Part shown: in pieces, positions 36,408 through 61,022 of the stretch
How positions within the stretch are numbered: the stretch's first letter is position 1
Layout: each line of letters opens with the position of its first letter
Origin: Naegleria gruberi
Lineage: Eukaryota
Length of the DNA: 64,000 nucleotides
Assembly: GCA_000004985.1 (NCBI GenBank)
Contig: GG738864.1
Strand: one strand, 5' to 3'
Notes under the pieces: generated by a model
What the model saw: only the letters and a program-made list of their open reading frames with translations
Database searches by the model: none
Told to the model about the DNA's origin: nothing
Made by a program: the position numbers and the translations under genes

Positions 36408-36728
36408 ATATTGAATTGTATTCTGATATGCAGTTTCAACTTCGATATGATCAGAAAATTGGTAAGCAAAATTTTCATCATGTAGAACGTTCAATAAATA
36501 TAGAAGATTGAGCAACCGTTTCAAATTCTTCAACCAAACCTTACTGAACCAACAATCTAACGTTTCGGTCCAAGTGTATATTTTTATGTAAATACCAGAA
36601 ATTATAGACATAAATGACTATGGCCATCATCCCGTCCGATTTGAGAAGTTAAATATTGTCGAGTACTGAGGTTGGAGACAACTTGGGAACCTTTGCTAAT
36701 TGTAAAGTCAAAAAAAATACCCTCACTC

Positions 36729-38768
36729 ATGCCACAAGGGAATGCCATCATTTTTCTTGATTGTAAAATCTCATCCGACTTGCTATCGGGCATGTATCAA
36801 CACTCGAAACGAATACAACTCTACAAGCAGATAATTTTACAATTTTACATGTATAAAATGGATGTGCCACTCTCCGATACTTTGAAAAACGATCGTCAGT
36901 TTATTCTACAAGCACTCCAATACGATTTTATATTCCATAAATATGGAAAGAAATTTGTAGAAGAGTTTTTAAGGAAAGATGAAGAATTTATTATGGAAAT
37001 GATAAGAGTCAATCCAAGGATTATTAGATATTGTCCAAAAAGACCTAAATATTGTTTACAAGCTGTAAAGTATGATCCTCAAATGTTGTTGTATGCGCCA
37101 AAGGAGGTTAAAAGATCAGAATCAATTGTTTGGGAATTATTCAAGAGGGATGCTTCCTGTTTGAGATATGCAAGTCAACGATTGACAAGTGGACCATTTG
37201 CTTTTAAAGTTTTTGAGTACAATGAGAGTGCATTTAGAACATTTTGTAAACATCCATTTACAATTAATTCAATATCTAAAAGGGAGGATTTGTTAAAACT
37301 TGTGTCTATGGGCTCATACTATTCGAAAATTAGTCCTACATTGAGAGAGGATGAGGAGGTTCAATTGGCAGCTCTCAACCATGACGCATATGTTTGGCAA
37401 TTATTGAGAGATGATTTAAAAAATGATAGGAACTTGGCAATGGAATGGGTTAAGAAAAATAGAGAAATTCTTGGATATACGAAATTTATTCACGATTATG
37501 AATTTATGGTGGAGCTGATTGAGGAGAATACTATTTATTTTTGGGATTTCAAAGGAGAAATGAAAGAACAACTTTTCAGAAAGAACAAAAAACTCCTTAT
37601 GACTGCTTTGGAGGATTACAAAATATTGGACTATCATTGGATACCTATTATTTCTACAAGTTGGTATTCCCTTCCTTCATCAATAAGTCAAGATAGAGAA
37701 GTAATCATGTTGTTTTTGAGAAAATTATGTAAAAATGAAAATGGATATAGATACTTTACATTTACCGTTTCTGGAGGAAATATTACAATCAATTGTGACC
37801 AATATTTTAAGGTATGCCTTGAAAATTTCCAAACTGACAGAGATTTCTTCCATTTAAATTTATCTAAAATTGGGTTGAATAGAGTATACGCATATGCTGA
37901 TCAATCAATGAAGAGAGATCCCAAATTCATTGCTTTTGTATTCAATTCATATCCTAACAATAATATCACTTTTGAATATGACAAGAATATAGTGAGAGAA
38001 CTTATTCCGCTTCTCAAGACAAATCCGTCTCAATTATTCACGGATATCAGATCATTGATTTCGGATGACAAGGAGCTATTACTGTTATGCATCAAGAATA
38101 TTAGCCCTTATTGCTTTAATTATGCATCTGAACACTTGAAAACTAATGTGGATTTTATAGAGGAGTGCATGCGAGTTAATAATTCAGTCATAGCAACTGT
38201 TTCCTTGAAATTGGTTAGAATGAATAAGGAATTGGCAATCCTAGCATTCAAAAAGGCAGTAGAAATAGATATAATACTCCCTATTTTAAAAGAATATTTG
38301 GCTGATGATGAATTATTTCAACTGCTATTCCAACCTTATTCAAATATTACTAGCGATCGATTGCTGAAAATATGTGAGGAATTAAGAATTTCTGATAATT
38401 TGAAAAATGATTATGAGCTTGCAAGAAGGATAATGAATAGATCTATCAAGTTCAGTATCATATTCAAAGACGCACCATTCATCAAAGAATTGATAATTGA
38501 AAAACTCATTCAGGGTCCAATCTGCTATTTAGAATTGAACGATTGTTTTAAATTTGATTGGGATTTGTTTAGTACTGTATACAGAAAGGCAGATTACATG
38601 GGTAGAACTAATTTGGTGTATAATAATCAGCACCTCAAGAAAAAAGATGTTTTAGTTAAATTATTAGGGAAAGGAGTGTATATTAGTGATAATGATAATG
38701 GTTTTATTGATAAGAAAATTACAAATGTGGATTTCATGTTGGAAAACTGTTCTCAAATGTTGATTTGA
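36729..38768 (+). CDS. repeat protein (~680 aa) built from tandem ~25-50-aa helical repeats resembling DUF4116
   Basis: Repeats of the form xFILQALQYDxxxLxYAPKEVKRDxExV recur throughout, for example LQAVKYDPQMLLYAPKEVKRSESIVWELFKRDASCLRYASQRL. The track ORF begins at a TTG (36672). The first in-frame ATG is at 36729. Confidence 0.45.
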   Translation: MPQGNAIIFLDCKISSDLLSGMYQHSKRIQLYKQIILQFYMYKMDVPLSDTLKNDRQFILQALQYDFIFHKYGKKFVEEFLRKDEEFIMEMIRVNPRIIRYCPKRPKYCLQAVKYDPQMLLYAPKEVKRSESIVWELFKRDASCLRYASQRLTSGPFAFKVFEYNESAFRTFCKHPFTINSISKREDLLKLVSMGSYYSKISPTLREDEEVQLAALNHDAYVWQLLRDDLKNDRNLAMEWVKKNREILGYTKFIHDYEFMVELIEENTIYFWDFKGEMKEQLFRKNKKLLMTALEDYKILDYHWIPIISTSWYSLPSSISQDREVIMLFLRKLCKNENGYRYFTFTVSGGNITINCDQYFKVCLENFQTDRDFFHLNLSKIGLNRVYAYADQSMKRDPKFIAFVFNSYPNNNITFEYDKNIVRELIPLLKTNPSQLFTDIRSLISDDKELLLLCIKNISPYCFNYASEHLKTNVDFIEECMRVNNSVIATVSLKLVRMNKELAILAFKKAVEIDIILPILKEYLADDELFQLLFQPYSNITSDRLLKICEELRISDNLKNDYELARRIMNRSIKFSIIFKDAPFIKELIIEKLIQGPICYLELNDCFKFDWDLFSTVYRKADYMGRTNLVYNNQHLKKKDVLVKLLGKGVYISDNDNGFIDKKITNVDFMLENCSQMLI

Positions 38769-39083
38769 TTTTTTCAATACTATTTATTTAATGGATAGTG
38801 CTTTGGTACTGTTGGTGTTAATCCATTGAGATCCACTGAATATTAATTCCCTTCATTACATGTGCTTATCATGTGATCTGCTGGAATATCTCTATTTCCA
38901 TGTTTTCCAATCCAAACAGATTGAAATTCTTCAAAGAGATTTCTTGCTTGGTCAACTAAACCTTGTTCTAATAATTGAATGGCTTGATTGTAGGTTTTCC
39001 ACTTGTCTCCCGATTCTTTCTGTTCCAATTCATACATCCTTAAAAAATATATTGTTAAATCTTGTTAGAATGTAAAACAAAAC

Positions 39084-41257
39084 TTACCATTCATCCATAG
39101 CTACCTGCTTTGAAGCCCCCACTTCATATATTGGAATTTTAGTAACCGATTGACTATAATTATCCATCAACAAATTATTCCATGAAACAATTCTCGTGTG
39201 GAACATTTGGTCAATCCCCTTTTCCTGAACTGCTTTTGTAACTGCCAAATCAACCTTCAAATGTTTCATAATATTAATCATATGTTCCAAATTTTGTTGA
39301 TAACTGCCAATAATTGTAAAGGTCTTGACTGCGTTTGTTCCAATATTACCTGCCTTACACAATTGACTCACAACGGCAATGCAAGGTTTGATATTCTTGT
39401 CAACAAGTTTCAGAGCTGTTAACATTTGTGAAAGAGTTGACAAGGCCTTTTCTTCTGGTTTCTGTACACTTGTATACGAATTCCAACTCACAATTATTGA
39501 ACTCTTCTCCAAAGTTCCAACCATTGCATTTGAAGTATTTGCAAACTTTTGAATAACTCCAAAAATATTCGTAAACAAGTTGACCAATTCATTTTCTTTC
39601 AAATTTGTACTAATTTCTTCCATTCCCTCAAAATAAATCATGGCACTTACAACCTGTCTCTGTTCAACTCCCAATTTGAAAAGAAACTTATTCTTTGGGT
39701 TGTGAACTGATGAGGAATGAGCATGATCTGAATCCATCTTTTTGCTGCTGAATTTACTGCTGATTGATGGCTCTGTCATGGATTCGTTATTGTCCAATTT
39801 GGCTAACAAGTGTTGTGGAATGAAAGCTCTGTAAGATTTCATCTTCCTAATCATGGTTGAGATGTGTTGTTGGAATTCTTCAATTTCGGTTAGGTTCGAA
39901 GAGATTTTCATAGCTTCTGCAACATCCAATTGCATTTCTGAAATAAATTCAAACTGATTCAACAGCTGCTTGAATGGCTTTACAATTCTTGAACTAAATC
40001 CCAAACTAATCAATGTTGCACACACAGTAATCACCACACTGACAACTGACGCAACAATGACAGCAATAATAATTGAGGAAATATAATTCCATTGAGGAAC
40101 TGAAAATATAATCAACCAATTCAATCCAGTTGCAGTACATAATCTATAAACACCAACATAATAATCTTCAACACTGGTATACATAAAGGTTGAGCATTTC
40201 ATTGATTTCAAATCATTTCCTAATTGGGAATAAACGGCTTTTCCAACAATTTGAACATTTTCGTCCTCGAATGTGAAGACTGTTTTTCTGTGGGATGTTC
40301 CATTTTTGTAAAATATGGTAGGTGGAATGTCAGGAAAACTATCTAAGTCAAATGTCATTTTTGTCATGTCTAAAATCAATACTTACTAGCAATCAATGCA
40401 TTACTCTCAATCTCTATCACAATTGCCATCGAATTTTGAATCTTACTCGTAAAATCTGATAAGAAAACCGAAAGTGAATGCGCAGTAATATCTATAGCAA
40501 AATACCAATCAAAATTATTTGCACCAGGTTTCGTATAAGCACTCACACAAGTAAACCAAACCCATAATGGAAAACTTGAATGGACATAGGAAGTTGAAAA
40601 GATTGTCGTATTCTTTGCCTTACTGGCATAGTTGACCACATAACTCATATCAAAAGCTCCATAATCAAAATCATATTCTGCATCACCATCTGGAACACAA
40701 TTAGTCACAGATTTGTAATAATCACATCTTTTAAAAAAACCGTTCGTGTCATTTCCAAGCATTTTATATCTGTAGAGTAGTGGCAGGTTTAATTGTCTGG
40801 CGACACTTGTGGTGATTCCAATATATCCACCTAAACCTATTCGATTCCCAAAATAGGCATTGATGGTGAGACCATTGACAAAGTTTTCTTGAGATTTGTA
40901 AACCATGAATGTTGTATCAAATATCCATTGATTTCTATTGTAATCAAATTCGTTTAGTACTGCGTTTCGTGTAGTTTCGGCTGACATGGCAATTTTCTTC
41001 ATTGAATTATCGACAAAGTCAATAATTTGCCCAAAGTTAGATTCTAATAACTTTTGACTCATGGTTACAACTGATCCTGTAAAGCTTGATGCCCAAACTA
41101 TAGTCAAGAATAGGACACATGCAATGACTAAACCTAATAGCAAGAGAATTAAACTCAATTTAATGGAAATAGTCTTGTTTCCACCATTTAAATCAGCACT
41201 AGTTGTAGATTCTGAGCTGACTGAATCAGCTTCTTGAGAGATGGGTTGTATTTTCAT
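39084..41257 (-). CDS. two-TM receptor with extracellular sensor domain and cytoplasmic class-III nucleotidyl-cyclase-homology (CHD)-like domain with non-canonical catalytic residues; 709 aa, 2 exons (41257..40387, 40342..39084)
   Basis: Track ORFs 40376..41257 and 39084..40379 look like a 4-nt overlap, but they are joined by a 44-nt GTAAGT...TTAG intron that restores frame. TM1 is LILLLLGLVIACVLFL, followed by a ~250-aa extracellular region, then TM2 IIIAVIVASVVSVVITV. The C-terminal region (MIYFEGMEEIS...AMVGTLEKSS...CKAGNIGTNAVKTFTIIGSYQQNLEHMI) aligns with cyclase motifs (FADIVGFT...KTIGDAYM...AGVVGxxxPRYxxFGDTVNxASRME), but the metal-binding Asp positions are substituted. Confidence 0.55.
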
Positions 41258-42795: not shown

Positions 42796-45700
42796 TCAAT
42801 AGTCAAATAAATCATTCAAAGTTTCAAGTATTGACATGATTGGTGGTCGTTTCTCTTCCTCAGCTTTCCAACACTCCTGAATTAATCCACATAGACTGTA
42901 TACTTTGCTAGCTTCCAATGAATCAAAAGTTTGTGGATTATTTCTCTTACACCACTGAAAACATTCTTCCTTAGAATGGAAAGGGATGAGAGGTCTGAGA
43001 TTATCTTGACAAATCTTACTGGTGAGGAAGGGAGTACTTGGGAATTTTCTTTCCTTATCAAGATTTAATCGTTGTAAAGTTCTTGGTTCAGTGTAAGTGT
43101 AGGCATCTTGACATTCGAATAATAATTGCCACATGATAATGCCAAATGCATAAACATCACATGATTTGGCATCTTGAATAGTTCCATTAATCAATTGAGG
43201 GCTCATGAAATTATGTGTACCAATCAAGTGTGTCATTATTGAATTATTCTTATCTGACATTTTGCGTGACAATCCAAAATCACATAATTTACAAATTCCA
43301 TCTTTGGTTAATAAAACATTTCCTGGTTTGAGATCTCTGTGGACAATTGGAGTTGGTAAAGTGTGTAAATACTCAATACCTCTTGCAATACCTAAAAACA
43401 TTTGAATTTTACGATCAAATGTCATTATGACAGTTCCCTTTTCTAACTCATGAATTACATCAACTAGAGATTTGTCCAATCGTTCCATTACTATAAATCC
43501 CTTGTTAGGCATTATTGAAACTCCATAGAAAGATGTAATATTAGGATGTCTCAATTTGACCAGTATTTTGACCTCATTGATAAATTCCTGATCTTGAATG
43601 TCAGAATCCATTTCGAATACTTTTACAGCAACACTAATTCCTTTCCACATACTTTCTATAACCATTCCTTGTCCTCCTTTTCCAAGTCTCTTTCTATTTC
43701 TCAAGTCCAAATCACCAATAGGAATGATAAAATCATTTTGTGGACTAGATTCTGGATCTTGCAGCTCTATTGGTTTGTAATCATCACCAAATAACAATTG
43801 CTTTGATAGAGAATCTGCATCTCCAATAATTTTCTTCTGTTTTCCATATTTTCTGCACAGGAATACCAATAAAGACACCAATAATATCAAAAGTGCTAAA
43901 AAGACAATACTCAAAACGATTGGAACAATTGCTGAAATAACGGAATCATTCTTTTCACAATAATCTCCAGAAGATCCACTTAAACATTTGCAATCATCCA
44001 CGGAATTACACATTCCACGACCACTACATACGTTTGGATCATTCTGTGCTAAGCCATAACACATGGTAAATTGGCATTGGTTTCCTGTATATCTATTCTT
44101 ACTGCATGTACACTTATCAATATCGGTGCAATTTCCTCGACTTTTGGCACCTCCACACGCATCCGGGTTGACCTTTCCATAGCAGGTTGCAGTTTCACAA
44201 TTACTTCCCAAATATTGATCACTATTGCATTTGCAAGAGTTGGATGATTGGCATGTTCCTCTTCCATTACACACGTCCTTATTTGCATTGGTCAATCCAA
44301 AACACACAGGTATATCACATTCCTTTCCAGTAAATCCAGATTGACATTCACATTGATTATATCCTATGCATTTTCCTTTTCCACAAGCATCCCCCTCTGT
44401 TTTTCCATAACAAACAGGCAAACACAATGTGAAATTATCATTCAAAATGTAGCCATTAATTTCACAGTGTGGTGTCAATGTATAAATTGCTGTTCGAGTG
44501 CAATAAATGATTGAGCCAGTAAGTGGGTCGAATTCAATATCTAAGGCATTCTCATTCAGATTTGAAATAGTTTCCACTTCTCTTTCTGATTTGATTAAAC
44601 TAATTTTCCTTCCATATTTGTGAAGGACAATTATTTTGTTATCTAAATTGAATACAGGTGAAAATGGACCCTCCAATCCTGATTCAGCAATTGTTGTAAT
44701 TATTCCATTCTTATTAATTCTTCTAATTCTGTCATTTAACATGTCGCAAAATACTAGATCTCCGAAATCATTAATCAATAGTCCAGTAGGTTTGTTGAGA
44801 GAGGATTTCGTTGCTTGGATGTAGTTCGATCCTCTACCAACATCTCCGTCTCCTGCAAGAGTTGTCAGCATGCCATTTCTGTCAAGTTTTCTAATATTTG
44901 AAAATAAGTCATCTGTGAAATAAACAACATTGAAACTATCCACAACAACAGAATATGGATAAGCAATGCTCAATCTTTCAGTAATATTATCTCTTCCGTA
45001 TCCACCTAAAAATCATTTGATTAGAATCTTTGAGATTCTATGAAAATTTCAACATACCAGAAATGAATGTAATTTCTTTAGTTCTAATTGAATCTTCACC
45101 AGTCATGTTCAATCCTAAAACTCGGTGATTTCTCGAATCTAGAAAATAAAGCATGTCGCCATCCACAAATAAACCTTTAGGGCTGTTCAATTTAATCTTT
45201 GCTGGACTAGTGTCTCTGTTAAATCCAGAAACTCCAACTCCAATTGCTGTTGAAATAAAATGTGAATTCACATTAATTAGTCTAATACGATTATTGAAAG
45301 TATCTGAAACGAAAATTAATTCATTTCCATCGTGATCTGTATAATATTCAGCAAATGTTGGATAGAGAAAGCTGATAAAATTATTAGAAAGACTATGAAA
45401 GAAGCACATGTACTCACCTTGCACTCAGGGAGGAGCCACCATCACCTCCATAACCATCGCTTCTTCCTGCTATTGTTTGAGTATTGGAATTGGCATTGCC
45501 ATTTTGTAAAATTATCTTTCTAATTCTATGATTTGCTAATATAATTAGAATAGTTTGGAAAATTTGAAAACTTACCAGAATCTACAATATACAAATGGGT
45601 AATCTTCTCTGGTTTTTCAACACATAATAAACCATACGGTTGATTGAATGCTGATGCAAGAGGAGCCCCATCAATATATCCTTGATATCCAACACCTGCT

Positions 45701-47577
45701 AATAAGTATCCTCTAGTTTCTTTTAAAGGAAATTCCAAAATACGATGATTGAATGTATCTGAAACATATAGAGTATCTGAATTTGCAGAATATTTAATGT
45801 CAGTAGGAGCATTCATTTGGATTGCACGTCTTGGCTTACCACTATATGGAATAGCTGACCCATCATTGGGAATGGTGAATGTTGGAATTCCAGCAAATGT
45901 ATCAATTATTCCAGTAAGTAACGAAACGTTTCTGATCAATCCATTTCTTGAATCCACAATATACATGACATTTTTCACTATGCATAATCCTTTAGGAGTG
46001 GATAACTGAGCATTAATAGCTAATCCTCCATCACCACTAAATCCAGATTGTCCAGTACCGGCTACAACATAGATTTTCCCCTCTTTGGTAATTTTTCTCA
46101 CCATATTATTTCCTGATTCAGTGAAATAAATATTTCCATCATCTGCTTTGTAAATCGATAAAGGGGTGTCCAGAACTGCATTACTGGCATCCATTCCATC
46201 TTTCTGCTTATTTTTTTTCGAAGAATCAATTAGTACTGTTTTAACTTTCTTCTTGATAACAGCTAAGGATGTGACAGAGGTTTCTGGATCAATAGATGTC
46301 ACGTAAACGCTCTCATCTTCTCCTAAATCGAGCTCTGTATAAATTACACTTTGAGATGAGGAAATTTCAGTACTACTACCCTCCAAAGAGGATACTCTTC
46401 CTGTTGTGAGCGAAATATTTCGAATAATATTACCATCAGTCACGTACAAATTCCTCAATAGTGGAGATAAGGTAATTTTCTCCATTCCCGAAAATCCATA
46501 TTTTAACATGGGTATTCCGTCTAAACTCAATCCATCCTCTGAGAAGATTTTCATCAGATTTCCATTAATAATTGTTAAAATTGCATCGTGATAGGCAATG
46601 AATACATTACTTCCAATATACATATCAGTTACTTCTCCTAGTTCAACTTTGAGGGCAGGTCCATAACTGTACTCTGTTGAATCCTTTCCAGAACCAACAA
46701 TTGCCTTACTTGTTCCATTTCTATTAATTTCGAATATTCTCTGGTAGCAAAAGGCAAATAATTGATCTTGATAAATAGTGGAGGTTCTTAAAATTGTTTT
46801 TGAATTGATAAATTCTTCTTGGTTATTACCAGCTATGGTTACATTCATTGAAAATAGATATTTTGGTTGATTGCCAATTTCATCAAGAATAATGTAGAGA
46901 GAATCATCCTTCAACACGACGAATATTTCATTAGAATCCAAATTAATCGACATGGTAGCTATTGTCATATTAAAAGCAGCAACAGGTTCCGTCCTCAACT
47001 CATTCGTTGTAACATTAAAAGCCATAATCCTATTCGAATCGGCAAAATACAGCATTCCTCTATTAATGACTGCTCTGAGTGGTGGATTGGTCAATTGAGT
47101 TGGTTTCACAAGTGTAGTTGCCTTCCCTGACTTGGTATCAAATTTCCTAATGGCAGGTATTCCTTTATCAATGAAATACACTTGATCATAGGCAATTCCA
47201 TCATCATGAATACTTTTCGAAATGAAAATCGATGAAGGATTTGAAATTAAAGTACCATTCCAACCACCCTGTTTGCTATTAAATGGTTTTCCATACTCTC
47301 CAATCACAGTTTCCACATCACCACTCGACATGTTCACTCGCATGATGCTATTTTTCGAATGTGAAAAGTAGAAACAATTTGGATGAGAAACGGATGGAAA
47401 TACAGAGAGAATATTTCCGAGTTGAATATCTTGGGATTGAGCCAAGATGTTTTCTGCATAATTTACAGGAAGGGACAATTGGGATTGAACGTGATGATGA
47501 TGATAGAAACAAAGAAGAAGAAATGAAACTAAACAAAACGTGAATGATGTGAATAGTTGCATTTTTTTAAATATCAT
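42796..47577 (-). CDS. receptor kinase A: signal peptide - ~25-30 NHL beta-propeller repeats - 4-5 EGF-like Cys modules - TM - Ser/Thr (TKL-like) kinase; ~1547 aa, 4 exons (47577..45576, 45535..45418, 45371..45058, 45005..42796)
   Basis: Introns are 40, 46 and 52 nt with GTAAGT, GTGAGT and GTATGT donors. A 46-nt intron was chosen over a 25-nt alternative because it conserves the NHL spacing GDGGxxxxAxFxxPxF. The NHL consensus recurs, for example GFSGDGGLAINAQLSTPKGL...YIVDSRNGLIRNV. The EGF-like region is CNGRGTCQSSNSCKCNSDQYLGSNCETATCYG. The TM helix is IVPIVLSIVFLALLILLVSLLVFLC. Kinase motifs are LGKGGQGMV, VAVKV, HRDLKPGNVLL and DFGLS, with APE replaced by SPQ. Confidence 0.8.
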
Positions 47578-48566: not shown

Positions 48567-49511
48567 TCATGGCTTCTTACTTGTTTTTTTCTTAATGCAA
48601 ATCTTCTTCTTAATTGACTTGCAACACTTCTTCTTTCCACCAACTAATTTGAATTTCTTACAAATCTTCTTTCCCTTTGAACGTTTCAAGCATTTCTTAT
48701 AATACTTCTTCTTGATACATCTTGGTGGAATGACAATTGACTTTGCACAATACTTCTTCTTTTGATATTTGACACATTTGGAAATAGTCTTCTTGTGCTT
48801 ACAGAACTTGATTGTCTTATGCTTGGCACAGAAGAATTTCTTCTTAATGAGACAACATTTCTTGATGGATTTTCTCTCCTTACAATATTTAACCTTCTTA
48901 TACTTGGCACATTTCTTTGCCCATGCAACAATCTTGCACTTTTTAACATATCTACATTTGGCGACCTTCTTTTTGTAGGAATCAATAGTGTACTTGTCGC
49001 AAATCTTCCTCTTTTCACACTTCTTGATTGGAACCTTCTTGAATTTCTTACAGACCTTCTTAACTCCCTTCTTGAAACACTTGTTGATAATCTTGTGTTT
49101 GGCACAGAATTTCTTGAAACTCTTCTTGATGCAAATCTTTCTAGTTCCATAAGAATCACAAACTTTCCAATACTTCTTCTTGGCACATCCAACAATCTTG
49201 TACGCGTGCAAGACACACTTCTTTGTTGGCTTGCTGTACTTGTCACATTTGGAATATTTCTTATGTTTGAGACATTTGCCAGCACCGACGATGGCATATT
49301 TATCACAGACTTTCTTTTGACCGACGAGTTTGTGTTTCAAACACTTCTTAATCCACTTGTGCTTTAAGCATTTTCTCTTACAATGCTTTGGTTTGTGATA
49401 CTTGTCAACTATGGCGACTGGAGGTTTAGTTCGATAGGTGTCACTTGCTTGAACTGAGAGGATTGCAAGTAAGAGAAGAATTGCAAATGAAAAGATTAGA
49501 TTTGCTTTCAT
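48567..49511 (-). CDS. secreted, extremely Lys/Cys-rich repetitive protein (314 aa; signal peptide MKANLIFSFAILLLLAILSVQA; ~35% Lys, ~12% Cys in CxK / KKC / CxKHK periodic motifs)
   Basis: ATG-initiated ORF. Its composition is far outside this window's norm. The long antisense ORFs over it (48686..49306, 48762..49367) are low-complexity shadows. Confidence 0.6.
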   Translation of the reverse strand: MKANLIFSFAILLLLAILSVQASDTYRTKPPVAIVDKYHKPKHCKRKCLKHKWIKKCLKHKLVGQKKVCDKYAIVGAGKCLKHKKYSKCDKYSKPTKKCVLHAYKIVGCAKKKYWKVCDSYGTRKICIKKSFKKFCAKHKIINKCFKKGVKKVCKKFKKVPIKKCEKRKICDKYTIDSYKKKVAKCRYVKKCKIVAWAKKCAKYKKVKYCKERKSIKKCCLIKKKFFCAKHKTIKFCKHKKTISKCVKYQKKKYCAKSIVIPPRCIKKKYYKKCLKRSKGKKICKKFKLVGGKKKCCKSIKKKICIKKKTSKKP

Positions 49512-51159: not shown

Positions 51160-54100
51160 TTATTTGAAATAATTGAGGGAAAGAAGTTGAGATGCATTTG
51201 GTCTTTGTTTTGAATCTTTTTCTAACATTTGCAATACAATTTCAATTAAATCATTCGAATATTCATTATCATTGGATTGTTTCATTTGTTTTGTTAGAAT
51301 GTTGATTGCGTTTTGTGATTGAATTCCCATCAACAAGTTGCTGATTGATGTTTCCTTGTCTTTTGTCATGATTTGATAAATTGAAACACCCAAAGAGAAA
51401 ATATCAGTATTAAAGGAATAGGAACTGCCAAGGGCAATTTCTGGACTCATATCTGAATGGTTTAGTTTCGTCTAAATAAAAAAATAAACTTACATAAAGG
51501 AGTTCCAGCATAGGATTGACCTTTTGATTCTTGAAACTTTTTAGCCAATCCAAAATCTGCCAAAACAATTTCAATTTTTTCACTTTCCAACTTTTTTATA
51601 AATATATTTGTTGGCTTAATATCTCTATTTTTCCAAAATTGATTTTACAAATTCCTAATATATACTTACCTATGAATAATATGCATCTCCTCATGAACAA
51701 GTTTCAATGCACTCAACATTTGTTTCAATATTTGCTTCAATAATTTCTCACTCACTACTTCGTCGTGTTTCAATAAATTTGTCAAATCTCCACATTCATA
51801 ATAATCCATGTCAATAATCAATAAATTGTCGTTGGTGATGAAATAATCATTCACCTTGATGATATTTGGATGATTGATATGGCTCAATTGGGATGCCTCT
51901 TTCATGATGGTATTCAAATCAGTGAATGATTCAAATCTGATAAGTTTGATTGCTTTCAGTTTGTTTCCATGTTTAATATCTGAAACTTTGAAAACACTTC
52001 CAAATGCTCCTTGTCCAATTCTTACAATATTCGAATATCTTGAGAAGGGATTTTCTTCAGAACTACTGGACGAGCCATTTGATGAAGAAATAATCATTGA
52101 GCTGGTGGAAGGAAATTCATTATCCGAAAGTTCAATATTGTTAGTATTGACCTGAACAATTTCCAATTTCTTATTCTTTCTTTTTCTTGAATTGAAGCAC
52201 ATTACCATAATGACTACTATTACAATTATTGTAAACAAAATTAATAAAGATCCAACAATAGGAATAACAATTGCAACTATTAATACTGATGAGTTGGTCG
52301 ATAATTGTCTTGCAATCTTAGTTATTTCACAATACTTTCCTTCAAAATCATCTTTACATTGACACGTGTCAAAATCCGAACAAATTCCATTTCCATTGCA
52401 AACACTTGAATTAGTTGCCAAAGTTCCATTACAATTCAATAGCATATCACACGTATTATTCCAAGTATTGAAAACATAATTTTCCTCACATTGTGGAATA
52501 ATCTTTCGAATATAAGTTGTTGCATCAATGAAGAAAATTTCACCTGAACTTTCGTCAAATTCAACTTGTTTTGTGAAGGAAGTAAATATTGTATCGGAAC
52601 CCTTTCCATCTCCATTGAATGCAGGAGAGGATGACCTCTTTCCAGCCAAGTCAATCAATAATCCACTCTTTTTCTCGTACATTCGAATAAGATTAGGAGC
52701 GCCTTTACTAGTTACTGTTCCATCTAACAATATAATATCACCATTCTTCTTGACAAAGATAGCAGAGGGGTTATCAATCGAAGATTCTAGTGCTGGTAAT
52801 CTGTCTCCTGAATATCCTTGAGAGAAAGTTCCCACCAAAGTTCTCAAATAAAATTGATTATTCGAAATCTTTTCAATTCTTCTAATGGTTTCCATTGTAC
52901 TTAAATAAAGATTTCCATCAATATAAAAAAGTGAAGTAATTAATCCAGGATACGTTTGAAAATTAACAACTATTCCGTCAGTAGATATTGGATTTGAGGA
53001 ATTGAACGTAAATTCCAGATTTAGTAGTTGAGTTTCCAAGCTGTATCTGTAAATATGCAAGATGTCTGATATTACTAAATCACCATTTGATTCATCTATT
53101 GTAAACCCTGACATTGCATTTGGTGGACAAGGTGAAAGTGTTCCCTTGACATTTGGTACAAAAGCTCCACAAGCACTTCCAATCACTCTTTCATAATTCA
53201 TAGTTTCTGGATCAAGTCTGATAATTCTACATGTTTCCTTAATGTATATCTTGTTATCAAATTTGGAAAGTTTACCAAAAGTTTTTAAACCAAGTATTGA
53301 CATGGTGATTGTCAAATAAGGAAAATCAAAAACTGGAATAGAAGGCAATAAAAACCAGCTAAGTGAAATTGACTTGCCTGTTTTTTCGTCAAACTTTTTT
53401 AAAACTCGATAATTATCAATGAAATAGTTTATCTTTTTAGCCGAATCTCTCATCAACAAAACAGGACTCAATGTTTTAGCTAATGGATTGAGTCCAGCTA
53501 TGGTTTTGATTGTTCCATTTGAAATTTCACTGATATAATTGGAGCAGGAGATGTAAATTCTTGAATCTTCTCTGTTCACTTGAATTGCATAACTTTGTAT
53601 TTGATTGTAATCTAATTTCAGTTTACAAAAATTACTTACGTTGCTGAAGTTTCAATAGGAATGTCATCACCATTGAATCCAGATGTATAAATATTAGTAT
53701 TTGAAATGTTAACCGCATCAAGTCCAACAATTTTCTTTAATGAAAGTGAATCCCATGAATATTCATAAACTTGTGAATAAATATAGAAATAGAAAATTCT
53801 GCCAAATGTAGTAAATCCATTAAATGATATATCTGATATTTTTCTAATACTAGTTGTATAATTTCCATTCTTATAATCAATATATTCATAAATACTGTTA
53901 CCAGAATAATATAACAGAGAATTAGTTCCATTTATGGTTAAATCTGGAATAACACGTATCAAACCTAACCCAGGGATATCAATTTTCAGGATATACAATA
54001 GATTGGATTTGTGAAAAACTGAAAAGGTTTGAACGTAAGTTTGATAATAAATTGTTGAATTCTCATAGGAATCCCCTGTTGCAGTAATGGCACTCGAATA

Positions 54101-55548
54101 ATATTTTGGATCGTGAACAAGTGTCAAATTTTGAGTTTCCATATTGAATACGTATAATCCCAAATTTATACTACCAGTAATCAAAATTTCTCCATTTCCA
54201 AAATGATGTAAAAAGCCAATTGAGAAGAAAATTCGACTAGGTTTGTTGGAGGGGTATTTCAATTCTTTGGAAGAGCCAAATACTGTTGTCATTTTCCCAT
54301 TCGAAACCTTTCGAATTACTAAAGATTGTTCAACAAAATAGAGATCGTTCTTGTATCGAAATGGAAATGTAGTAGCTCCGTAAGTGTACATTTTGAGAGG
54401 TGAAATATTTTCACCATACGGATGATTGATTATTCCACCTGCAAGTGTAGAAACCATCTTGCTTTGTAAATCAATCTTTCGAATACAACTGTTCGATTTA
54501 TCCGCAACCAAAATTGAATTACGAGTCACAATCAAAGAAGAAGGTTCATAAAACTTGATACTAGAGGTATCATATAATTGATTATCACCTTCATATCCAC
54601 TTTCAGATACAGAACTTCCAATAAATAAAAGAGTAGAGGATGATTTTTCCTTTTTCATCTGAATGAAATGATTTGATTGTGAAGAGGTGTAAATTTCACC
54701 TTCATTCGAAACATAAATTCCATATCTGAAAGTAAATATTAAATTTCATCATTATTACTATTCGAAACTTACAAATTAGATTGAGATAATCCTCCATCCA
54801 CAATTCTATAAAATCCATTTTCATCAATTGACTTGACTCTTTCCTCATCTGTGAAATATACAATATCATTCTTTCCATTATTAGAATAAACATATATATT
54901 CTTTGGTGATTTTAAAAGTAATGACTTGGCATCAACTCCATCATAATCTCCATTTAGATAACCACCTCCTCCTAATATGGAAAGTGTTTGAGTGGCAATT
55001 TCATATTTCCAAATTAAGTTATTATTAGTATCTGCAATGTAGGCATTTCCATTCTTTGAAACACTGACACCTTTTGGTTTGTTAAAGGTATGCGAAATGG
55101 AAGAAACCAATTTGGTCGAATACGAAACTATTCGAATCATATCATTCAAAGTATCGGCAATAAACAAATCACCATTCAATGGATTCACTGCCACAGATGT
55201 TGGTGTATTCAGTAGAGTACCAACAGCACTCTGTCCATCTCCATTAAACCCACTCGTTGTAAATCCAGCATAAACTTCCAAAGTTGACCAATTTTGATCA
55301 TAAATTCTATAAATTAAATGTCTTTCAATATCAGAAATATAAATCTCACCATTCAATCCTTCACATAATCCACTCGGTGATAACATGTAAGCAAATTTCG
55401 CATCCACCACATCAAAATTAGTTGTACTTCCTTCAATTGTTTTGGTTGAGTAATATTTCACATTCTTCGATCTTTCCACAGCAGCACATGTGCTGGCCAA
55501 CAAGTTGCTGAGCAGGAGTAGTAGTAGTATTGAAGTGGTGACCTCCAT
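51160..55548 (-). CDS. receptor kinase B (paralog of A/C): signal peptide - NHL propeller repeats - EGF-like modules - TM - Ser/Thr kinase; ~1402 aa, 5 exons (55548..54773, 54725..53640, 53592..51670, 51624..51494, 51452..51160)
   Basis: The signal peptide MEVTTSILLLLLLSNLLASTCAA starts at an internal Met of track ORF 54769..55824. Introns are 47, 47, 45 and 41 nt, all with GTAAGT donors. A kinase exon missed by the ORF track encodes HRDIKPTNIFIKKLESEKIEIVLADFGLAKKFQESKGQSYAGTPLY|MSPEIALG. Other kinase motifs are IGQGAFGSV and AIKLI. The TM helix is LIVAIVIPIVGSLLILFTIIVIVVIMV. EGF-like modules include CNGNGICSDFDTCQCKDDFEGKYC. Confidence 0.8.
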
Positions 55549-56212
55549 TGAAAGACACCTGCCAACTGTCGCATGTCTTGAGTAATGGTACAACATGTTT
55601 GCTTTATTTTTGTTTATTTTGAACAATACATCTTGTGCGTCTATTTCCGAATAATCAATGTGGGTTAAAGGATAATTGTTCCAACTCCATAACAGATGTT
55701 GTAAAGAAATTGATGTATGGTGATTGGATGAATATTCCTCTTTTTTGGCAAGTTTCGTCATCATCTCATGCGGGTAAATTAGTGTTACTGTACCGTTGTA
55801 GTAGCTCGAACATTCTATGTTCAAAGGATTAGTCTAAATTCGAATAAAAATTAAAGATCTAATTAAACTCCACATGATTCATTTCTTGTGTAATATGCAA
55901 ATTATCAGCAATAGATTCAGGAAATTGTAAACTCCATCTTCATGATCCAATTCATAATATTCATTGTTTTCCAAATTTACAATAACTGAACAAACAAACC
56001 TTGCTTCAAAAAATCAACCAAACTCTCGTAATACCTTGCTTGGTTTTCGTTCCAACAATTCATCTCTTGCTGTAAATTAAGATGAATTACTGTGTGATCA
56101 AGTTTTTTCCTTAGATTCTAGTTGTAAAAGAGAATTCTCCATTTCTAAAAGAGATCCAAAGGAGGATTGACTAAAGTGCATACATATAAGTGTTAAAGTG
56201 ATTGTTTATTAA

Positions 56213-59200
56213 TTAATTTTTGAGTGAATTTTTCAATAGAGAAAGAATTTCATTAAAGTGGTGAATAGAAGGTCTTTGAGAAGGATTAGTTTCCCATCCC
56301 TTCTTAATTAAATCAAGTAATTGGTAGATTACTGTACTTTCTTGGAGTGAATAGGCCTTTTTCATTTCACACCAAGATTGACAATCTTCCAAAGTTTCGA
56401 ATGGAATGAGTGGACGATGTCCAGATGCAATCTTTGGAAGCAGTTGGCTTAATAAATTTTGATATTGAACTGGTTGTTCAAGATTCAACTTGTTTAATAT
56501 CAATGGATTCGTATAATAATAAGGATCCATAATTTCAAATAGAATTTGCCACATGATTATTGACAAACTATAAATGTCAACAGCAGTTAACAATTGCCTT
56601 TCAATTTCACCAAATGATTCAGGACTATTAATCAAAATCATTAGAAAGATAATAAATAGTAATACTCTACCTCATATAATAAAAAGTTCCAATTTGATTT
56701 GTAATTTGCGTGTTGTTTTGCTTATTCAAGAGTCTGGACAAACCAAAATCACACAACTTGCTCACTCCATGAACATCTTGCAAAATATTGGCAGGTTTCA
56801 AATCTCTGTGCACGATCGTTGGTTTCAGATTGTGTAAATATTCGATTCCTTTGCAGATATCAAGCATAATATCCATCTTTTGACTCAATGACAATTTCAT
56901 TCTATTAGATTGGAGTTCAGCAATAATATTTTCAAGACTTCTCTCCATTTTCTCCATTACAATATATCTCTTGGTTGGAGTAGAAGAAACTCCAAAGAAG
57001 GAAATAATATTTGGATGTCTCAATCTGGAAAGAACTGTTGCTTCAGACCTAAAATCATTTTCATCAATATTCATATTATTCAAATCGAAAACCTTAATAG
57101 CTACTTCAGTTCCAATCCATTGAGATTGATAAACTGATCCATAGCCACCAGAACCAAGTTTCTTCATTTTACCCAAATCCAACTTGTTAATAGAAATGAA
57201 GAATGAATCTGCTTCATCCTTCTTCTTTCCATCATTGTCAATTTCCAGTTCAAGCATGTTATCAGTAACAAATTGATCAGTTTTAATGATCTTTCTCTGA
57301 ACATAATACTTTCTGAATAGACCAATAATAATGAAAAGTGAACCACCAATGCAAAAGACAAGAACTGCAACACCTATTAAAGCACCAATAAGAGCCCACA
57401 GTTCATCAGAATGTTGACATTGTTCACCTGAATAACCAAATTGACAGGTGCATTGATTTGGAAGTGAACAACTGCCTCTTCCATTACAAACGTCTGCCTC
57501 TTTTTCATTCCTTCCAAAACATGTCATTAATTCACATTCTAAACCAGTATATCCAGTATTACAAGAACATTGATTCTTGTCAAGGCAACTTCCTCTTACT
57601 GAACCACCACAAGCCCCGTCAAGAATCTTTCTGAAACAAATTGGCGTTTGACACATTGAGGAAGTATATCCTTCTTTACAAATGCAAGTATTTGGAGCTG
57701 TGCAGTTACCTCTTCCATTTGTGCAAACACTGGAACTATTAGAAGCTTCTCCATAACAAACTGGTATTTCACATTCGAAACCTGTATATCGAGACGAGTC
57801 ATAACATTGACACAAATCTGGTGAAAGACATTCTCCATTATTATTGCAAACATTTCCACTCAACAGTTTGATCTTTCCATAACAAATTGGAAGGCAAGTA
57901 TCATTCTTTGAATAGACATGACCATTCTCACAGAAAGCTTCCAATTTTCTAACATTATTCAATGAAGAATCGATAAAGAATAATACATTTCCTTCATTGT
58001 TAATTGTCATGGAGGTGGGTGAAATACTGAAAGGTTTTGATTTGGTTTGAGATGGAGCAGATCCATCCCCCGCAATTACATCAAATGGATGACTAGCAAT
58101 GGTTGAAATCTTTCTAATAAAATTGTTTTTGCTATCTGAAATAATTGTTTGTCCCTTATAAGAAACAACTGAGGAAGGTGAATTTAAGGAACTTGTTTTT
58201 GGATCAGAGGTTTGAGAGAAGCCAGTGAACCCATTACCTGCTACAGTTTCCAATAATCCTTTCTTGTTAATTTTTCTCACCTTACTAATTCCAGATTCGA
58301 CAAAGATTAATTCACCCTCTTCATTGACATACAATCCTTTAGGTGCTGCAATATCTGATGAAATGGCCAATCTTCCATCCTCGGAGATTCCAAACAATCC
58401 AGTTCCTGCAATAGTTGAAATTACTCCATTTGTGGAAATCTTTCTAATTCTATTCTGAGCTGTTTCACTAACGTACATTTCACCACTCGAGGAGAAGGCA
58501 ACATACGAAGCCTCAACTTGTGAATAAAGAGCCAAGTTATTGTCGCCAATTCCTCCAGCAAATTTCTTTACCCACTTTCCTTCAATTTGACTTTCCAATA
58601 TTCTATTGTTACCTTTTCAAATTTCTTAATAAAATAATTCTAAATACTTTTAACTTACCTGAATCAGCAATAAATAAAATAGATTTGGAATGGTCAAAGA
58701 AGGTACATTGTGGATTATTCAATTTGACATTAGAACCTGTAATGTTTCCTTCGAAATAATTATAACCTGCAAAACCATTACCAACAACTGAATAAGTGGA
58801 CGAAAGGACAGCAAATCTAATTCTATGAGATTGGGAATCAGTAATGTGGATATCAGTTAAAGCAGATCCAACTGAGTTTACACTCGAAACACAAGTTGGT
58901 GTATTGTAAATTGCATTTGGTAAATTAAAATCATCTGTGTAACCCTTAGCTCCACTACCACTATGCGTAGTTACAGTTACTGGATCATTAAAAAGTGGTT
59001 GTAGATCAACATATCTAATACGATTATTTCCAGAGTCTGCAAAATAGATAATCCAATCTGAATTGAGAGAGAATCCCATAGGTGTGTCCAAATGAGTGGA
59101 GAGAGCTGGCCCATCACCATTGAATCCCTTTACACCACTTCCAGCAATGGTTTGAATAATACCAGTACTAAGAGTAATTTGTCTTAATCTATTATTGAAA

Positions 59201-61022
59201 GTATCAGAAAAAAACAATTCATGATAATAATTGACTTGGAGATAGGTTGGAGAATTCAATTGAGCAGTAAGGGCATTAATATTGTCTCCATTGTAACCTT
59301 GTATTCCATTTCCTGCAATGGTTTGGATGATTCCAGATGTTATGTTGACAGCTCTAATTCTATGATTATTGGTATCGGCAACATAGAGCACATTATTATC
59401 CAAATAGATTCCAGTTGGAGAATTAAGCTTGGCCAATGTTGCTAAACCACCATCACCATCAAATCCAGAAGTTCCACATCCAGCAACACCAATTACCACA
59501 CCACTAGTTCTGTGAACCTTAATAATTCTATGATTTCCAGAATCAGAAATGTATACATAACTAGTTGTTGCAAAAATTCCCTTTGGAGAGTTTAGAACTA
59601 GTTGATCTTTGTGTTGCTGTAAAAGCCTGGATGCTGTTATTGGACCTGCAAACATTGTTGAAATGCTTCCATTATATTTGTGAATGAAACCCTTTGATGA
59701 GACAACATATAGATCACTGTTATTGGTTGAGACTGAAACTGGATTGAGAGCAAAAGGTTGATAGGTATCAATGAAATTCAACTCCTTCTCTGGGGCTATC
59801 ATTTCAAGTTTGTTGTTTGCTGAGATTTTTCGTACAGCTCCATAGTCAGAAACGTAAAGGTTTCCACTTTGCTGATCCAGAACTATTCCAGTTGGAGAAT
59901 GAAGTGTTGTCTCACTAGAATTGTATCCATCAATAAATGGACCAATAACAGCTCCATCATAATTAATAAACAAGATCAATGATATTGTTTCATCAATCAT
60001 TGAAATTTTTCTAATTGTTTTCAGTCCAAAATCGCTAACGTACATGAAACCATTATGAATACCAAAATACTGATTTATGGCAATGAATTCAGCATCACTT
60101 GCCTTTCCACCATCTCCAAAAGTGGTTGCTTCCAAACTAGCCTGTTTACCATTTCCAACAAATCTTGAAATATTTCCATTTCTCAAATCCATTTTCCTTA
60201 TTGTCGAAGAAAGCTCTTTAGTATCCACGTATAGCAAGTAATTATCCACTCTCAACAGTCCTGGATGAGTAAAATCTAAATTTTCTACCAACAGCTCTTC
60301 ACCATTATCAATGGTCCATCTACAAAGTGATTTCACATCAATATCTTTAAATTTGAAATAATAAACGACACCATCATCATCCACATAGACATCCAAAACA
60401 TTTGATGATGTTGAAATGTAGGTGCTGACAATACCATTCTCTACTTTTCTAATTGCATCATTATACCCATCTGCAATGTACATAATTCCATCTTTATCAA
60501 TGAACATTGAATAGATCCTAGTGTGTATGAAATGTGTTAGATAAAGAACAAATAATTGAACACATACCCATCAAAGAGAGCTTCTCTTGCATCTCCTCCA
60601 TCACCACTATATCCTGATTCATCTTTGATTCCGACAATTACTGTATAATTAGCCTCAACTTTTTCATTGATAATACTTATGGAAGTGGAATCGGAACAAT
60701 AAACAACACCACTTTTAACATTCACGTATAATGAACAAATGAATGGCTTCTTGAGGAGTGTCATCTTTTTTGATACTGCATCTATTTTAGCAATGAAACT
60801 ATCATCCACGGTATCACATTCAAAATAAATGTGTCCTTCATTAGTAACATGGACAGCTCCTAAACCACTGAATACATTCTGTTTGTGAGGTTTGGTTACA
60901 TCACTCAGTGAGTATTTTGGTGTTGTTTGACCAAAGGATTCCCTTAGTAGGAATTGTGTGAAAAAGCAACAAGCTAACAACACTAAGGCAATGACGGATT
61001 GGAAAGGAAGGTGTTGCTTCAT
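56213..61022 (-). CDS. receptor kinase C (paralog of A/B): signal peptide - NHL propeller repeats - EGF-like modules - TM - Ser/Thr kinase; ~1555 aa, 4 exons (61022..60568, 60517..58659, 58612..56671, 56624..56213)
   Basis: The signal peptide is MKQHLPFQSVIALVLLACCFF. Introns are 50, 46 and 46 nt with GTATGT, GTAAGT and GTAGAG donors. The exon junctions ...EALFDG|IYSMFIDKDG and ...IADSG|GNNRILES fall inside NHL repeats, and ...GTFYYM|SPESFG inside the kinase. NHL consensus examples are YVADTNNHRIRAV, FFSDTFNNRLRQI and ADSGNNRIRYV. EGF-like modules include CNNNGECLSPDLCQCYDSSRYTGFECEIPVCYG. The TM helix is LIGALIGVAVLVFCIGGSLFIIIGLF. Kinase motifs are LGSGGYGSVY, VAIKV, HRDLKPANIL, DFGLS and YMSPE. 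Confidence 0.8.

Follow-up and report, generated by a model that had tools for sequence, protein, structure and literature searches.

A double-Cache receptor of a heterolobosean amoeba with a class III cyclase-homology domain in which four of six catalytic residues are replaced

The question raised by the gene described here is whether a membrane receptor that carries a cyclase domain is still a cyclase. The gene lies on the minus strand, at 41257..38843, of a stretch of 64,000 nucleotides of contig GG738864.1 from Naegleria gruberi (assembly GCA_000004985.1), hereafter the window. An earlier note on this DNA, made from the letters and a list of open reading frames, had described a spliced gene for a receptor with two transmembrane (TM) helices and a cyclase-homology domain (CHD) without catalytic aspartates, and had proposed a pseudo-cyclase, a regulatory subunit or a highly diverged enzyme. 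The gene consists of three exons, with the reading frame open across all of them, and encodes in order TM1, a dCache ectodomain, TM2, a HAMP-like linker, a motif resembling the cyclase transducer element (CTE), a class III CHD and one TPR-like hairpin. In our assessment the product is probably a pseudo-cyclase receptor that is gated by a ligand and whose output is non-catalytic; among the three proposals, the first fits best a two-TM Cache-type receptor whose CHD has no catalytic Asp. Residue numbers refer to the 782-aa model with a 17-nt intron 1; for the 773-aa model with a 44-nt intron 1, nine must be subtracted past residue 291.

The cyclase-homology domain and its catalytic residues

The C-terminal domain is a class III CHD by both homology and fold, the homology being established through the family and not through a curated threshold. 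The 718-aa two-exon product gave no match in Pfam (E ≤ 10) and nothing relevant in a phmmer search of PDB sequences. Taken alone, these single-sequence results would wrongly dismiss the CHD, which family profiles and the predicted fold both reveal. A three-sequence CHD profile retrieved from PDB sequences CyaB (3r5g, E 2.3e-8), Cya2 (7.5e-6) and CyaC (1e-3), and a 62-sequence profile retrieved CyaB with E 8.5e-24 together with some 45 more class III cyclases, among them mammalian AC5/8/9, sAC, sGC and GC-A. The Pfam cyclase model PF00211 was matched by 23 of the 62 relatives (best E 2.5e-10). The AlphaFold model of exon 2 has a predicted local distance difference test (pLDDT) score of 88 overall and above 90 in the CHD part; the top 50 PDB matches of this model in Foldseek were all class III cyclases (E ~1e-11, target TM-score 0.73–0.78), whose fold is defined by a beta-alpha-beta-beta-alpha-beta core with a beta4–beta5 tongue. 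The cyclase homology claimed in the earlier note thus holds by family profiles and by fold. The profile search that it proposed was silent in Pfam for the single sequence and positive for the relatives and the family profiles, and structure prediction, its other proposed check, gave a class III cyclase fold; of the two outcomes that it named as refuting, the missing profile match was seen for the single sequence only and the unrelated fold was not.

The catalytic positions were mapped onto CyaB with HMMER, MAFFT (124 CHD regions) and hmmalign alignments:

39680..39038, minus strand: CHD, residues 521–718, including the split Trp codon (AlphaFold and family profiles)
39633..39635, minus strand: Tyr536 (IY-FEGM), which three alignments set opposite the first metal-binding Asp of CyaB (FSD-IRGF)
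39501..39515, minus strand: codons of Thr576-Leu-Glu578-Lys579-Ser580, aligned to K-F-V-G-D of CyaB; the alignments place Thr576 at the substrate Lys (IDK-FVGD) and Ser580 (LEKS) at the second metal-binding Asp (VGD)
39279..39317, minus strand: codons of Thr642 to Met654 (FTIIGSYQQNLEHM), placed by HMMER and hmmalign; the specificity Thr (YTIIG in CyaB) is kept in the alignments as Thr642 (FTIIG), the transition-state Asn (VNLASR) falls on Asn650 with a one-residue shift and otherwise on Gln649, and the transition-state Arg of the same motif falls on Met654 (gapped) or His653 (ungapped)

Four of the six canonical catalytic residues are replaced: both metal-binding Asp, the substrate Lys and the transition-state Arg. 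The metal Asp pair, the Lys/Glu and the Asn-x-x-x-Arg motif expected of an enzyme are absent, and the second specificity residue, Thr642, is present. In active enzymes the metal-binding Asp lie at the end of beta1 and in the beta2–beta3 hairpin, the substrate residue, Lys in adenylyl and Glu in guanylyl cyclases, stands four residues ahead of the second Asp, the second specificity residue is Asp or Thr for adenine and Cys or Gly for guanine, and the Asn and Arg are on helix alpha4. In the Asn/Arg region, MAFFT is one residue off the HMMER alignment with the three-sequence profile, and neither register restores the Arg. The exon-2 model agrees with the mapping of the metal sites: Gly539 stands ahead of helix alpha1, as in canonical CHDs, and residues 579/580 lie at the turn of the beta2–beta3 hairpin. 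The substrate-residue column is fixed independently by the E488K variant of Cya2 (6fht, PMC5995499); the Glu of Cya2 and the Lys of this variant align together in the 62-sequence profile. The loss of both Asp was seen correctly in the earlier note, and the residues that it gave for the metal sites, E and LEK, are off by two residues and one residue, respectively. Glu538 stands two past Tyr536, just before the conserved Gly539, and the counterpart of the GD(A/C) triplet is Lys579-Ser580-Ser581.

Class III CHDs work as dimers, with the active sites formed across the interface; one subunit provides the Asp pair and the other provides Lys, Thr, Asn and Arg. Mutagenesis of class III cyclases has shown that loss of either metal-binding Asp abolishes activity. 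In the window protein the half with the Asp pair and the half with Lys and Arg are both defective, so the protein would form no canonical site either with itself or with a competent partner. This also speaks against the regulatory subunit suggested in the earlier note, which would need to contribute a complementary half-site: the protein has neither the Asp pair nor Lys and Arg to offer. Judged by these residues, it most likely cannot make cyclic AMP (cAMP) or cyclic GMP (cGMP), be it as a homodimer or with an active paralogue.

The substitutions are a property of the family. An exhaustive profile search, in which the exon-2 and exon-1 translations formed the first rows, yielded 2668 cluster representatives at E ≤ 1e-3, 532 at E ≤ 1e-10 and 98 at E ≤ 1e-30. 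A word-indexed search with the single sequence returned only two N. gruberi ‘predicted proteins’ (27–28% identity), and the same search with the 62-sequence profile returned 18. The best full-length relative is a N. lovaniensis protein with 33% identity; the named relatives among those looked up belong to N. gruberi, N. lovaniensis and Willaertia magna, several being automatically named ‘Guanylate cyclase domain-containing protein’ or ‘adenylate/guanylate cyclase’, and most relatives of middle rank come from metagenomes under the name ‘class 3 adenylate cyclase’. A tail motif, [DE][DE]W[ML][YF], is present in 65 of the 123 relatives with an alignable CHD. None of these 65 has the first metal-binding Asp (His, Lys, Tyr, Arg, Leu or Asn is found instead), and in all 65 the gapped Arg column is hydrophobic, with Leu or Met throughout. 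The substrate-Lys column holds Ser or Asn in most relatives, and the full D/K/GD/T/N/R set is confined to distant tail-less relatives, such as the protein P0142.

The domain is nevertheless strongly conserved. Among the 41 closest sequences, position 578 is E or D in 39, Asn is found at position 579, Asn587 is invariant and His is found at position 595. Strong conservation extends to Gln626, Cys-Gly-Asn-x-Gly-Thr 630–635, Lys639, Phe641, Asn650 and Arg683, as well as to Tyr-Glu-x-Gly 705–708 and Asp-Glu-Trp-Met 716–719. Many of the conserved CHD positions border the former cleft and the tongue. Since four of the six catalytic residues are lost and yet the domain is so well kept, the protein probably does its signalling without cyclic nucleotide synthesis.

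Purifying selection on the gene is evident from a comparison with a metagenome contig (L001, ENA ERZ929261) that is 98% identical across 41029..38581. The exons differ by 21 synonymous and 2 non-synonymous changes; the proportions of differing synonymous and non-synonymous sites (pS and pN) are 0.050 and 0.0012, which gives pN/pS 0.024 (binomial P = 3e-13). The gene is therefore maintained by purifying selection and is not a decaying copy. L001 lacks 14 nt at 39913..39900 (minus strand, residues ~440–445, in the HAMP-like connector), which breaks the frame, and gene callers divide its gene into P0043 and P0154. As synonymous-only divergence goes on downstream, this deletion marks a null allele of very recent origin or else an error of the assembly.

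Gene model, sensor and linker

The window is eukaryotic DNA with 33% GC. Its receptor gene is intact, has three exons and belongs to a heterolobosean amoeba akin to Naegleria and Willaertia. Starting from the ATG at 41257, two long open reading frames (41257..40376 and 40379..39084) overlap at a GTAAGT donor. The features of the gene are as follows:

40387..41257, minus strand: exon 1, from the ATG of the open reading frame; cytoplasmic N-terminus, TM1, long stalk helix and membrane-distal Cache module
41158..41087, minus strand: TM1, residues 34–57 (hydropathy)
40343..40386, minus strand: intron 1, GTAAGT donor at 40386, acceptor AG ending at 40343 (44 nt, preferred) or 40370 (17 nt, alternative)
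39088..40342, minus strand: exon 2; proximal Cache module, TM2, HAMP-like linker, CTE-like motif, Ser/His insert and CHD
40085..39999, minus strand: TM2, residues 386–414 (hydropathy)
39998..39825, minus strand: HAMP-like helix-loop-helix, residues 415–472 (exon-2 AlphaFold model)
Exon 2, minus strand: CTE-like motif YRAFIPQHLL, residues 469–484 (family conservation)
Exon 2, minus strand: low-complexity Ser/His insert, residues 485–520 (disordered, pLDDT below 50)
39039..39087, minus strand: intron 2, 49 nt, GTAAGT...TTTTTTAAG (GTAAGT...TTAAG), phase 2, within the Trp718 codon; it encloses the stop at which the earlier note ended the gene
38843..39038, minus strand: exon 3; MYEL of the family motif DEWMYEL and the TPR-like hairpin 719–782, with the stop at 38845..38843
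Exon 3: TPR-like helical hairpin, residues 719–782, in a single copy (profile matches)

The earlier note had placed a spliced gene at 39084–41257. Its start and the short GTAAGT...AG intron joining two reading frames stand; its 3′ end does not, because the TAA at 39084 is read only when the 49-nt intron 2 is left unspliced. N. gruberi homologues run beyond ‘..MDEW’ with ‘MYELQEKEKKAKWTKYNQA..’, and in the window this stretch is encoded a short way downstream. Splicing of intron 2 joins exon 3 in frame, and its product (MYELEQKE..KWKTYNQA..) is kept in all full-length relatives. At the other end, the N-terminus encoded by exon 1 can be aligned with that of the N. gruberi homologues. L001 carries a 2-nt insertion in intron 1 and, in intron 2, a 4-nt deletion, a 2-nt insertion and two substitutions; since these indels are not multiples of three, both introns are non-coding.

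Both GT..AG options for intron 1 (40386..40343 and 40386..40370) keep the reading frame, and the protein is 773 aa long with the 44-nt intron or 782 aa long with the 17-nt intron. Three further introns of the window, inferred from their GTAAGT donors, measure at least 46, 47 and 47 nt if the frame is to be kept, and intron 2 is 49 nt long. Because these lengths all lie within 46–49 nt, we regard a 44-nt intron 1 as more likely than one of 17 nt. An early AG also occurs in another gene, 19 nt past its GTAAGT donor (58658..58640), where its use would run into a stop.

The protein is a type-II-like two-TM receptor with an extracellular double-Cache sensor. The two TM helices reported earlier were recovered as hydrophobic helices at ~34–57 and ~386–414, with an ectodomain of ~330 aa (58–385) between them instead of the ~250 aa stated then. 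The earlier note had called this domain Cache/CHASE-like in size; a Cache-type sensor is borne out by the exon-1 AlphaFold model (pLDDT 85.5), which retrieves dCache sensors in Foldseek. In this model TM1 runs into a ~70-residue helix (32–99), followed by an alpha/beta module with a beta-sheet. The best PDB match was CqsR (E 4.7e-5), followed by Tlp3, TlpA, KinD, HK1S-Z8 and Mlp37, and the CHASE sensor domain of Arabidopsis AHK4 was also among the best matches. The membrane-proximal Cache module is present in the exon-2 model (model residues 17–91), and the two models together show the dCache layout, a stalk helix and two stacked PAS-like PDC modules between two TMs. The curated dCache_1 profile (PF02743) did not match the window protein itself in the Pfam search; among 62 relatives it matched four, and MCP-like_PDC_1 was found in four. 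The family profile matches the sensor of the dCache diguanylate cyclase 7k5n (E 8e-6).

The distal Cache module carries an insert of ~43 aa (window ~40700..40840, residues ~140–185) that the N. gruberi homologues lack. Two Cys (KRCDYY and TNCVP) lie within it, and the model is less confident there (pLDDT 66–68). The insert may form a loop close to the ligand pocket, braced by a disulfide and specific to the lineage.

A HAMP domain is a helix-connector-helix of about 50 aa after TM2, with a conserved Pro in AS1 and E-x-x-x-L-x-x-x-F-x-x-M in AS2; motifs like these, RIVKPF... and EIEEFQQHISTM, are visible in the window protein. The top match of the linker profile in the PDB was the HAMP domain of NarQ, with a weak E of 0.13, and 3 of 27 members matched the Pfam HAMP family (PF00672) below threshold, the best of them with E 0.018; a HAMP identity of the linker is putative. 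The subsequent YRxFIPxHLL motif is near-invariant across the family and forms a short helix in the exon-2 model. It resembles the CTE motif of class III cyclases (PMC5995499) and is separated from the CHD by the disordered insert of ~36 aa. The chain from sensor to CHD appears to be retained in full. TPR repeats are helix-turn-helix units of 34 aa with a W/L-G-Y...A...F...A pattern, usually found in arrays. In profile searches the tail, with its one hairpin, matches designed PPR/TPR arrays, reaching significance only through summed repeats, and a few relatives match TPR families of Pfam (Fis1_TPR_C, TPR_1).

The neighbours of the receptor gene include genes for DUF4116 repeats, a leishmanolysin, NHL-EGF receptor kinases and a giant RGS protein, consistent with a Naegleria-like genome. 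Those with further detail are:

3701..5785, minus strand: SLC4-type HCO3- transporter gene (E 8e-132)
6974..14569, plus strand: single open reading frame of 2531 aa, the sole Pfam match being a C-terminal RGS domain (E 5e-8)
36672..38768, plus strand: DUF4116-repeat protein (E 6e-37), convergent with the receptor gene, its stop ~75 nt from the receptor stop at 38843
42796..47577, 51160..55824 and 56667..60507, minus strand: three tandem receptor genes, NHL-repeat/teneurin-like with EGF, TM and protein-kinase parts, each split by short introns
48567..49511, minus strand: open reading frame of 314 aa with a signal-peptide-like start followed by repetitive, extremely Lys/Cys-rich sequence (KKC..KHK), overlapping other mechanical reading frames

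The tandem receptor kinases beside the pseudo-cyclase receptor look like a local expansion. Bicarbonate regulates some class III cyclases; the bicarbonate transporter gene is 33 kb away, and the data suggest no link. The search for a partner cyclase gene that the earlier note had recommended found no second CHD gene in the 64-kb window by tblastn and hidden Markov model scans in six frames. A weak tblastn match at 51696..51944 was rejected as a partner cyclase, as it sits inside a receptor-kinase gene.

Weighing the explanations

For a ligand-gated pseudo-cyclase receptor, the following sequence of events can be proposed. A small extracellular ligand would bind the distal Cache module, and the induced change would pass through TM2, the HAMP-like linker and the CTE-like element to the CHD dimer, whose conformation would be read out non-catalytically. 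The output could consist in partner binding or release at the cleft and tongue (E578, N587, Q626, C-G-N-x-G-T 630–635, K639 and N650); alternatively, partners might be bound through the TPR hairpin, and nucleotide binding may have been retained. Several observations weigh against this interpretation. The Pfam cyclase model misses the protein itself, and the HAMP scores of the linker are sub-threshold. Two acidic residues, Glu578 and Glu538, are conserved near the lost Asp sites and might conceivably bind metal at a shifted position, and the retained Thr642, Asn650 and Lys639 would be compatible with nucleotide binding and hence with some chemistry.

These residues are the basis of the view that the protein is an active cyclase or nucleotidyl transferase with a re-wired site, in which metals would be held by Glu538 and Glu578 (and by Asp580 in many relatives). 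The near-constant acidic residue at 578 in the close relatives, the frequent acidic residue at 538, the Asp at 580 in roughly a third of relatives and the three retained residues speak for it. The window protein, however, has Ser580 and has lost the substrate Lys and the transition-state Arg too, position 538 is acidic in only about 35% of the tail-bearing relatives, and class III cyclases become inactive when either metal Asp is lost. The nearest folds in Foldseek are moreover cyclases, and not GGDEF or polymerase palm domains. We consider such an enzyme improbable; the highly diverged enzyme of the earlier note also seems unlikely, with nothing arguing for it. Even less credible is a decaying, functionless pseudogene copy of a receptor cyclase. 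The lost catalytic residues and the frame-breaking 14-nt deletion of the related metagenome contig (39913..39900) would suit it, but the frame is open across three exons, the same substitutions are conserved family-wide and across genera, and synonymous changes continue past the deletion site; with a pN/pS of 0.024 this explanation was rejected.

A less remote alternative, though still an unlikely one, is an inhibitory or modulatory heterodimer, in which the dead CHD pairs with a competent paralogous receptor cyclase and the Cache ligand steers cAMP indirectly. With neither half-site intact, the dead CHD would silence the partner enzyme or re-tune it. This arrangement would be a special case of a pseudo-cyclase receptor and does not exclude it. 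It agrees with the dimeric action of class III CHDs across their interface, with the strong conservation of cleft and tongue residues in the subfamily and with the existence of distant relatives, such as P0142, that combine the full set of six residues with a matching sensor/TM region. The count of at least 81 cyclases in Naegleria genomes (PMC9928731) also speaks for it. On the other hand, the 64-kb window holds no canonical CHD gene, two-TM HAMP-type receptors are normally homodimeric, and the very large size of the family is in better keeping with receptors that act on their own than with dedicated partners. The explanation that we prefer is still a pseudo-cyclase receptor gated by a ligand, with a non-catalytic output.

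A broader proposal is more doubtful, and we put it forward tentatively: a family of ligand-gated pseudo-cyclase receptors, large and ancient, may exist in heterolobosean amoebae, in which a new output has replaced cyclic nucleotide synthesis and which would make up part of the 81-plus Naegleria ‘cyclases’. Its members would possibly keep the chain of sensor, HAMP-like linker, CTE-like element and CHD, and might act through the re-modelled cleft (the F-E-N hairpin, Asn587 and C-G-N-x-G-T) and the TPR hairpin. Such a device could be a nucleotide-sensing or protein-recruiting switch previously undescribed for class III cyclase domains.

Relation to known systems

The window protein is a homologue of class III cyclases, but it is best not classified among the adenylate or guanylate cyclases, because the defining catalytic features fail. 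The literature mentions ‘at least 81 cyclases’ in Naegleria genomes and does not comment on their catalytic competence (PMC9928731); within the literature searched, nothing specific was found on pseudo-cyclases or inactive CHDs in the Naegleria lineage. If it is true that a large conserved subset makes no cyclic nucleotide, counts of domain hits overstate the capacity for cAMP and cGMP, and they would also mask a separate class of receptors. A dead CHD that stands under strong purifying selection, with its sensor, linker and conserved cleft, is a test case for non-catalytic roles of CHDs. The family is present in N. lovaniensis, a close and non-pathogenic relative of N. fowleri, and the pathogen may have orthologues as surface receptors.

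The proteins most closely related to the window protein come from Naegleria and Willaertia, for example XP_044550760.1 (N. lovaniensis, ‘Guanylate cyclase domain-containing protein’), XP_002679537.1 (N. gruberi), XP_002673367.1 (N. gruberi, ‘adenylate/guanylate cyclase’) and KAL9645173.1 (W. magna). They share with the window protein the full-length architecture, the DEWMYEL motif with the TPR-like tail, the YRAFIP motif and the loss of the first metal-binding Asp. The identity is 25–33%; the window protein differs by the Cys-containing insert of ~43 aa in the distal Cache module and by Ser in place of Asp at the second metal site. The members looked up carry no functional description, and the residues do not bear out the enzyme activity suggested by their names. 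A Naegleria ‘bacterial-type adenylate cyclase’ with a Cache domain has been noted before (PMC4822843), and the window protein is architecturally similar to it.

The best sequence and fold matches outside this group are bacterial class IIIb cyclases, namely CyaB of P. aeruginosa (3r5g), Cya2 of Synechocystis (2w01) and CyaC of Spirulina (1wc1). The extracellular sensor, TM, a putative helical transducer and the CHD are common to both, as is, in the case of CyaB, the Thr at the second specificity position. In the bacterial enzymes D, D, K/E, T, N and R are intact, whereas D, D, K and R are replaced in the window protein, which also has the additional C-terminal TPR-like hairpin and the ~36-aa insert before the CHD. 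The earlier note had pointed to bacterial sensor cyclases and to Dictyostelium ACG; bacterial class IIIb cyclases of dCache/HAMP type are the closest in architecture, closer than ACG. Both ACG and the receptor adenylate cyclases of trypanosomatids are active enzymes. They are eukaryotic proteins of receptor type with an extracellular sensor and a cytoplasmic CHD, and the window protein has a sensor of dCache fold, a HAMP-like linker and a TPR-like tail. ACG is mentioned as an osmosensor in PMC9928731.

Regulatory use of a CHD fold with lost residues has parallels in heterodimeric class III cyclases with degenerate half-sites. In the forskolin site of the mammalian adenylyl cyclase (AC) C1/C2 pair and in the alpha/beta subunits of soluble guanylate cyclase, the CHD fold is retained, catalytic residues are lost and the remainder is put to regulatory use. 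Each chain of these enzymes keeps one complete complementary half, so that there is one active site per dimer; in the window protein, both halves are defective.

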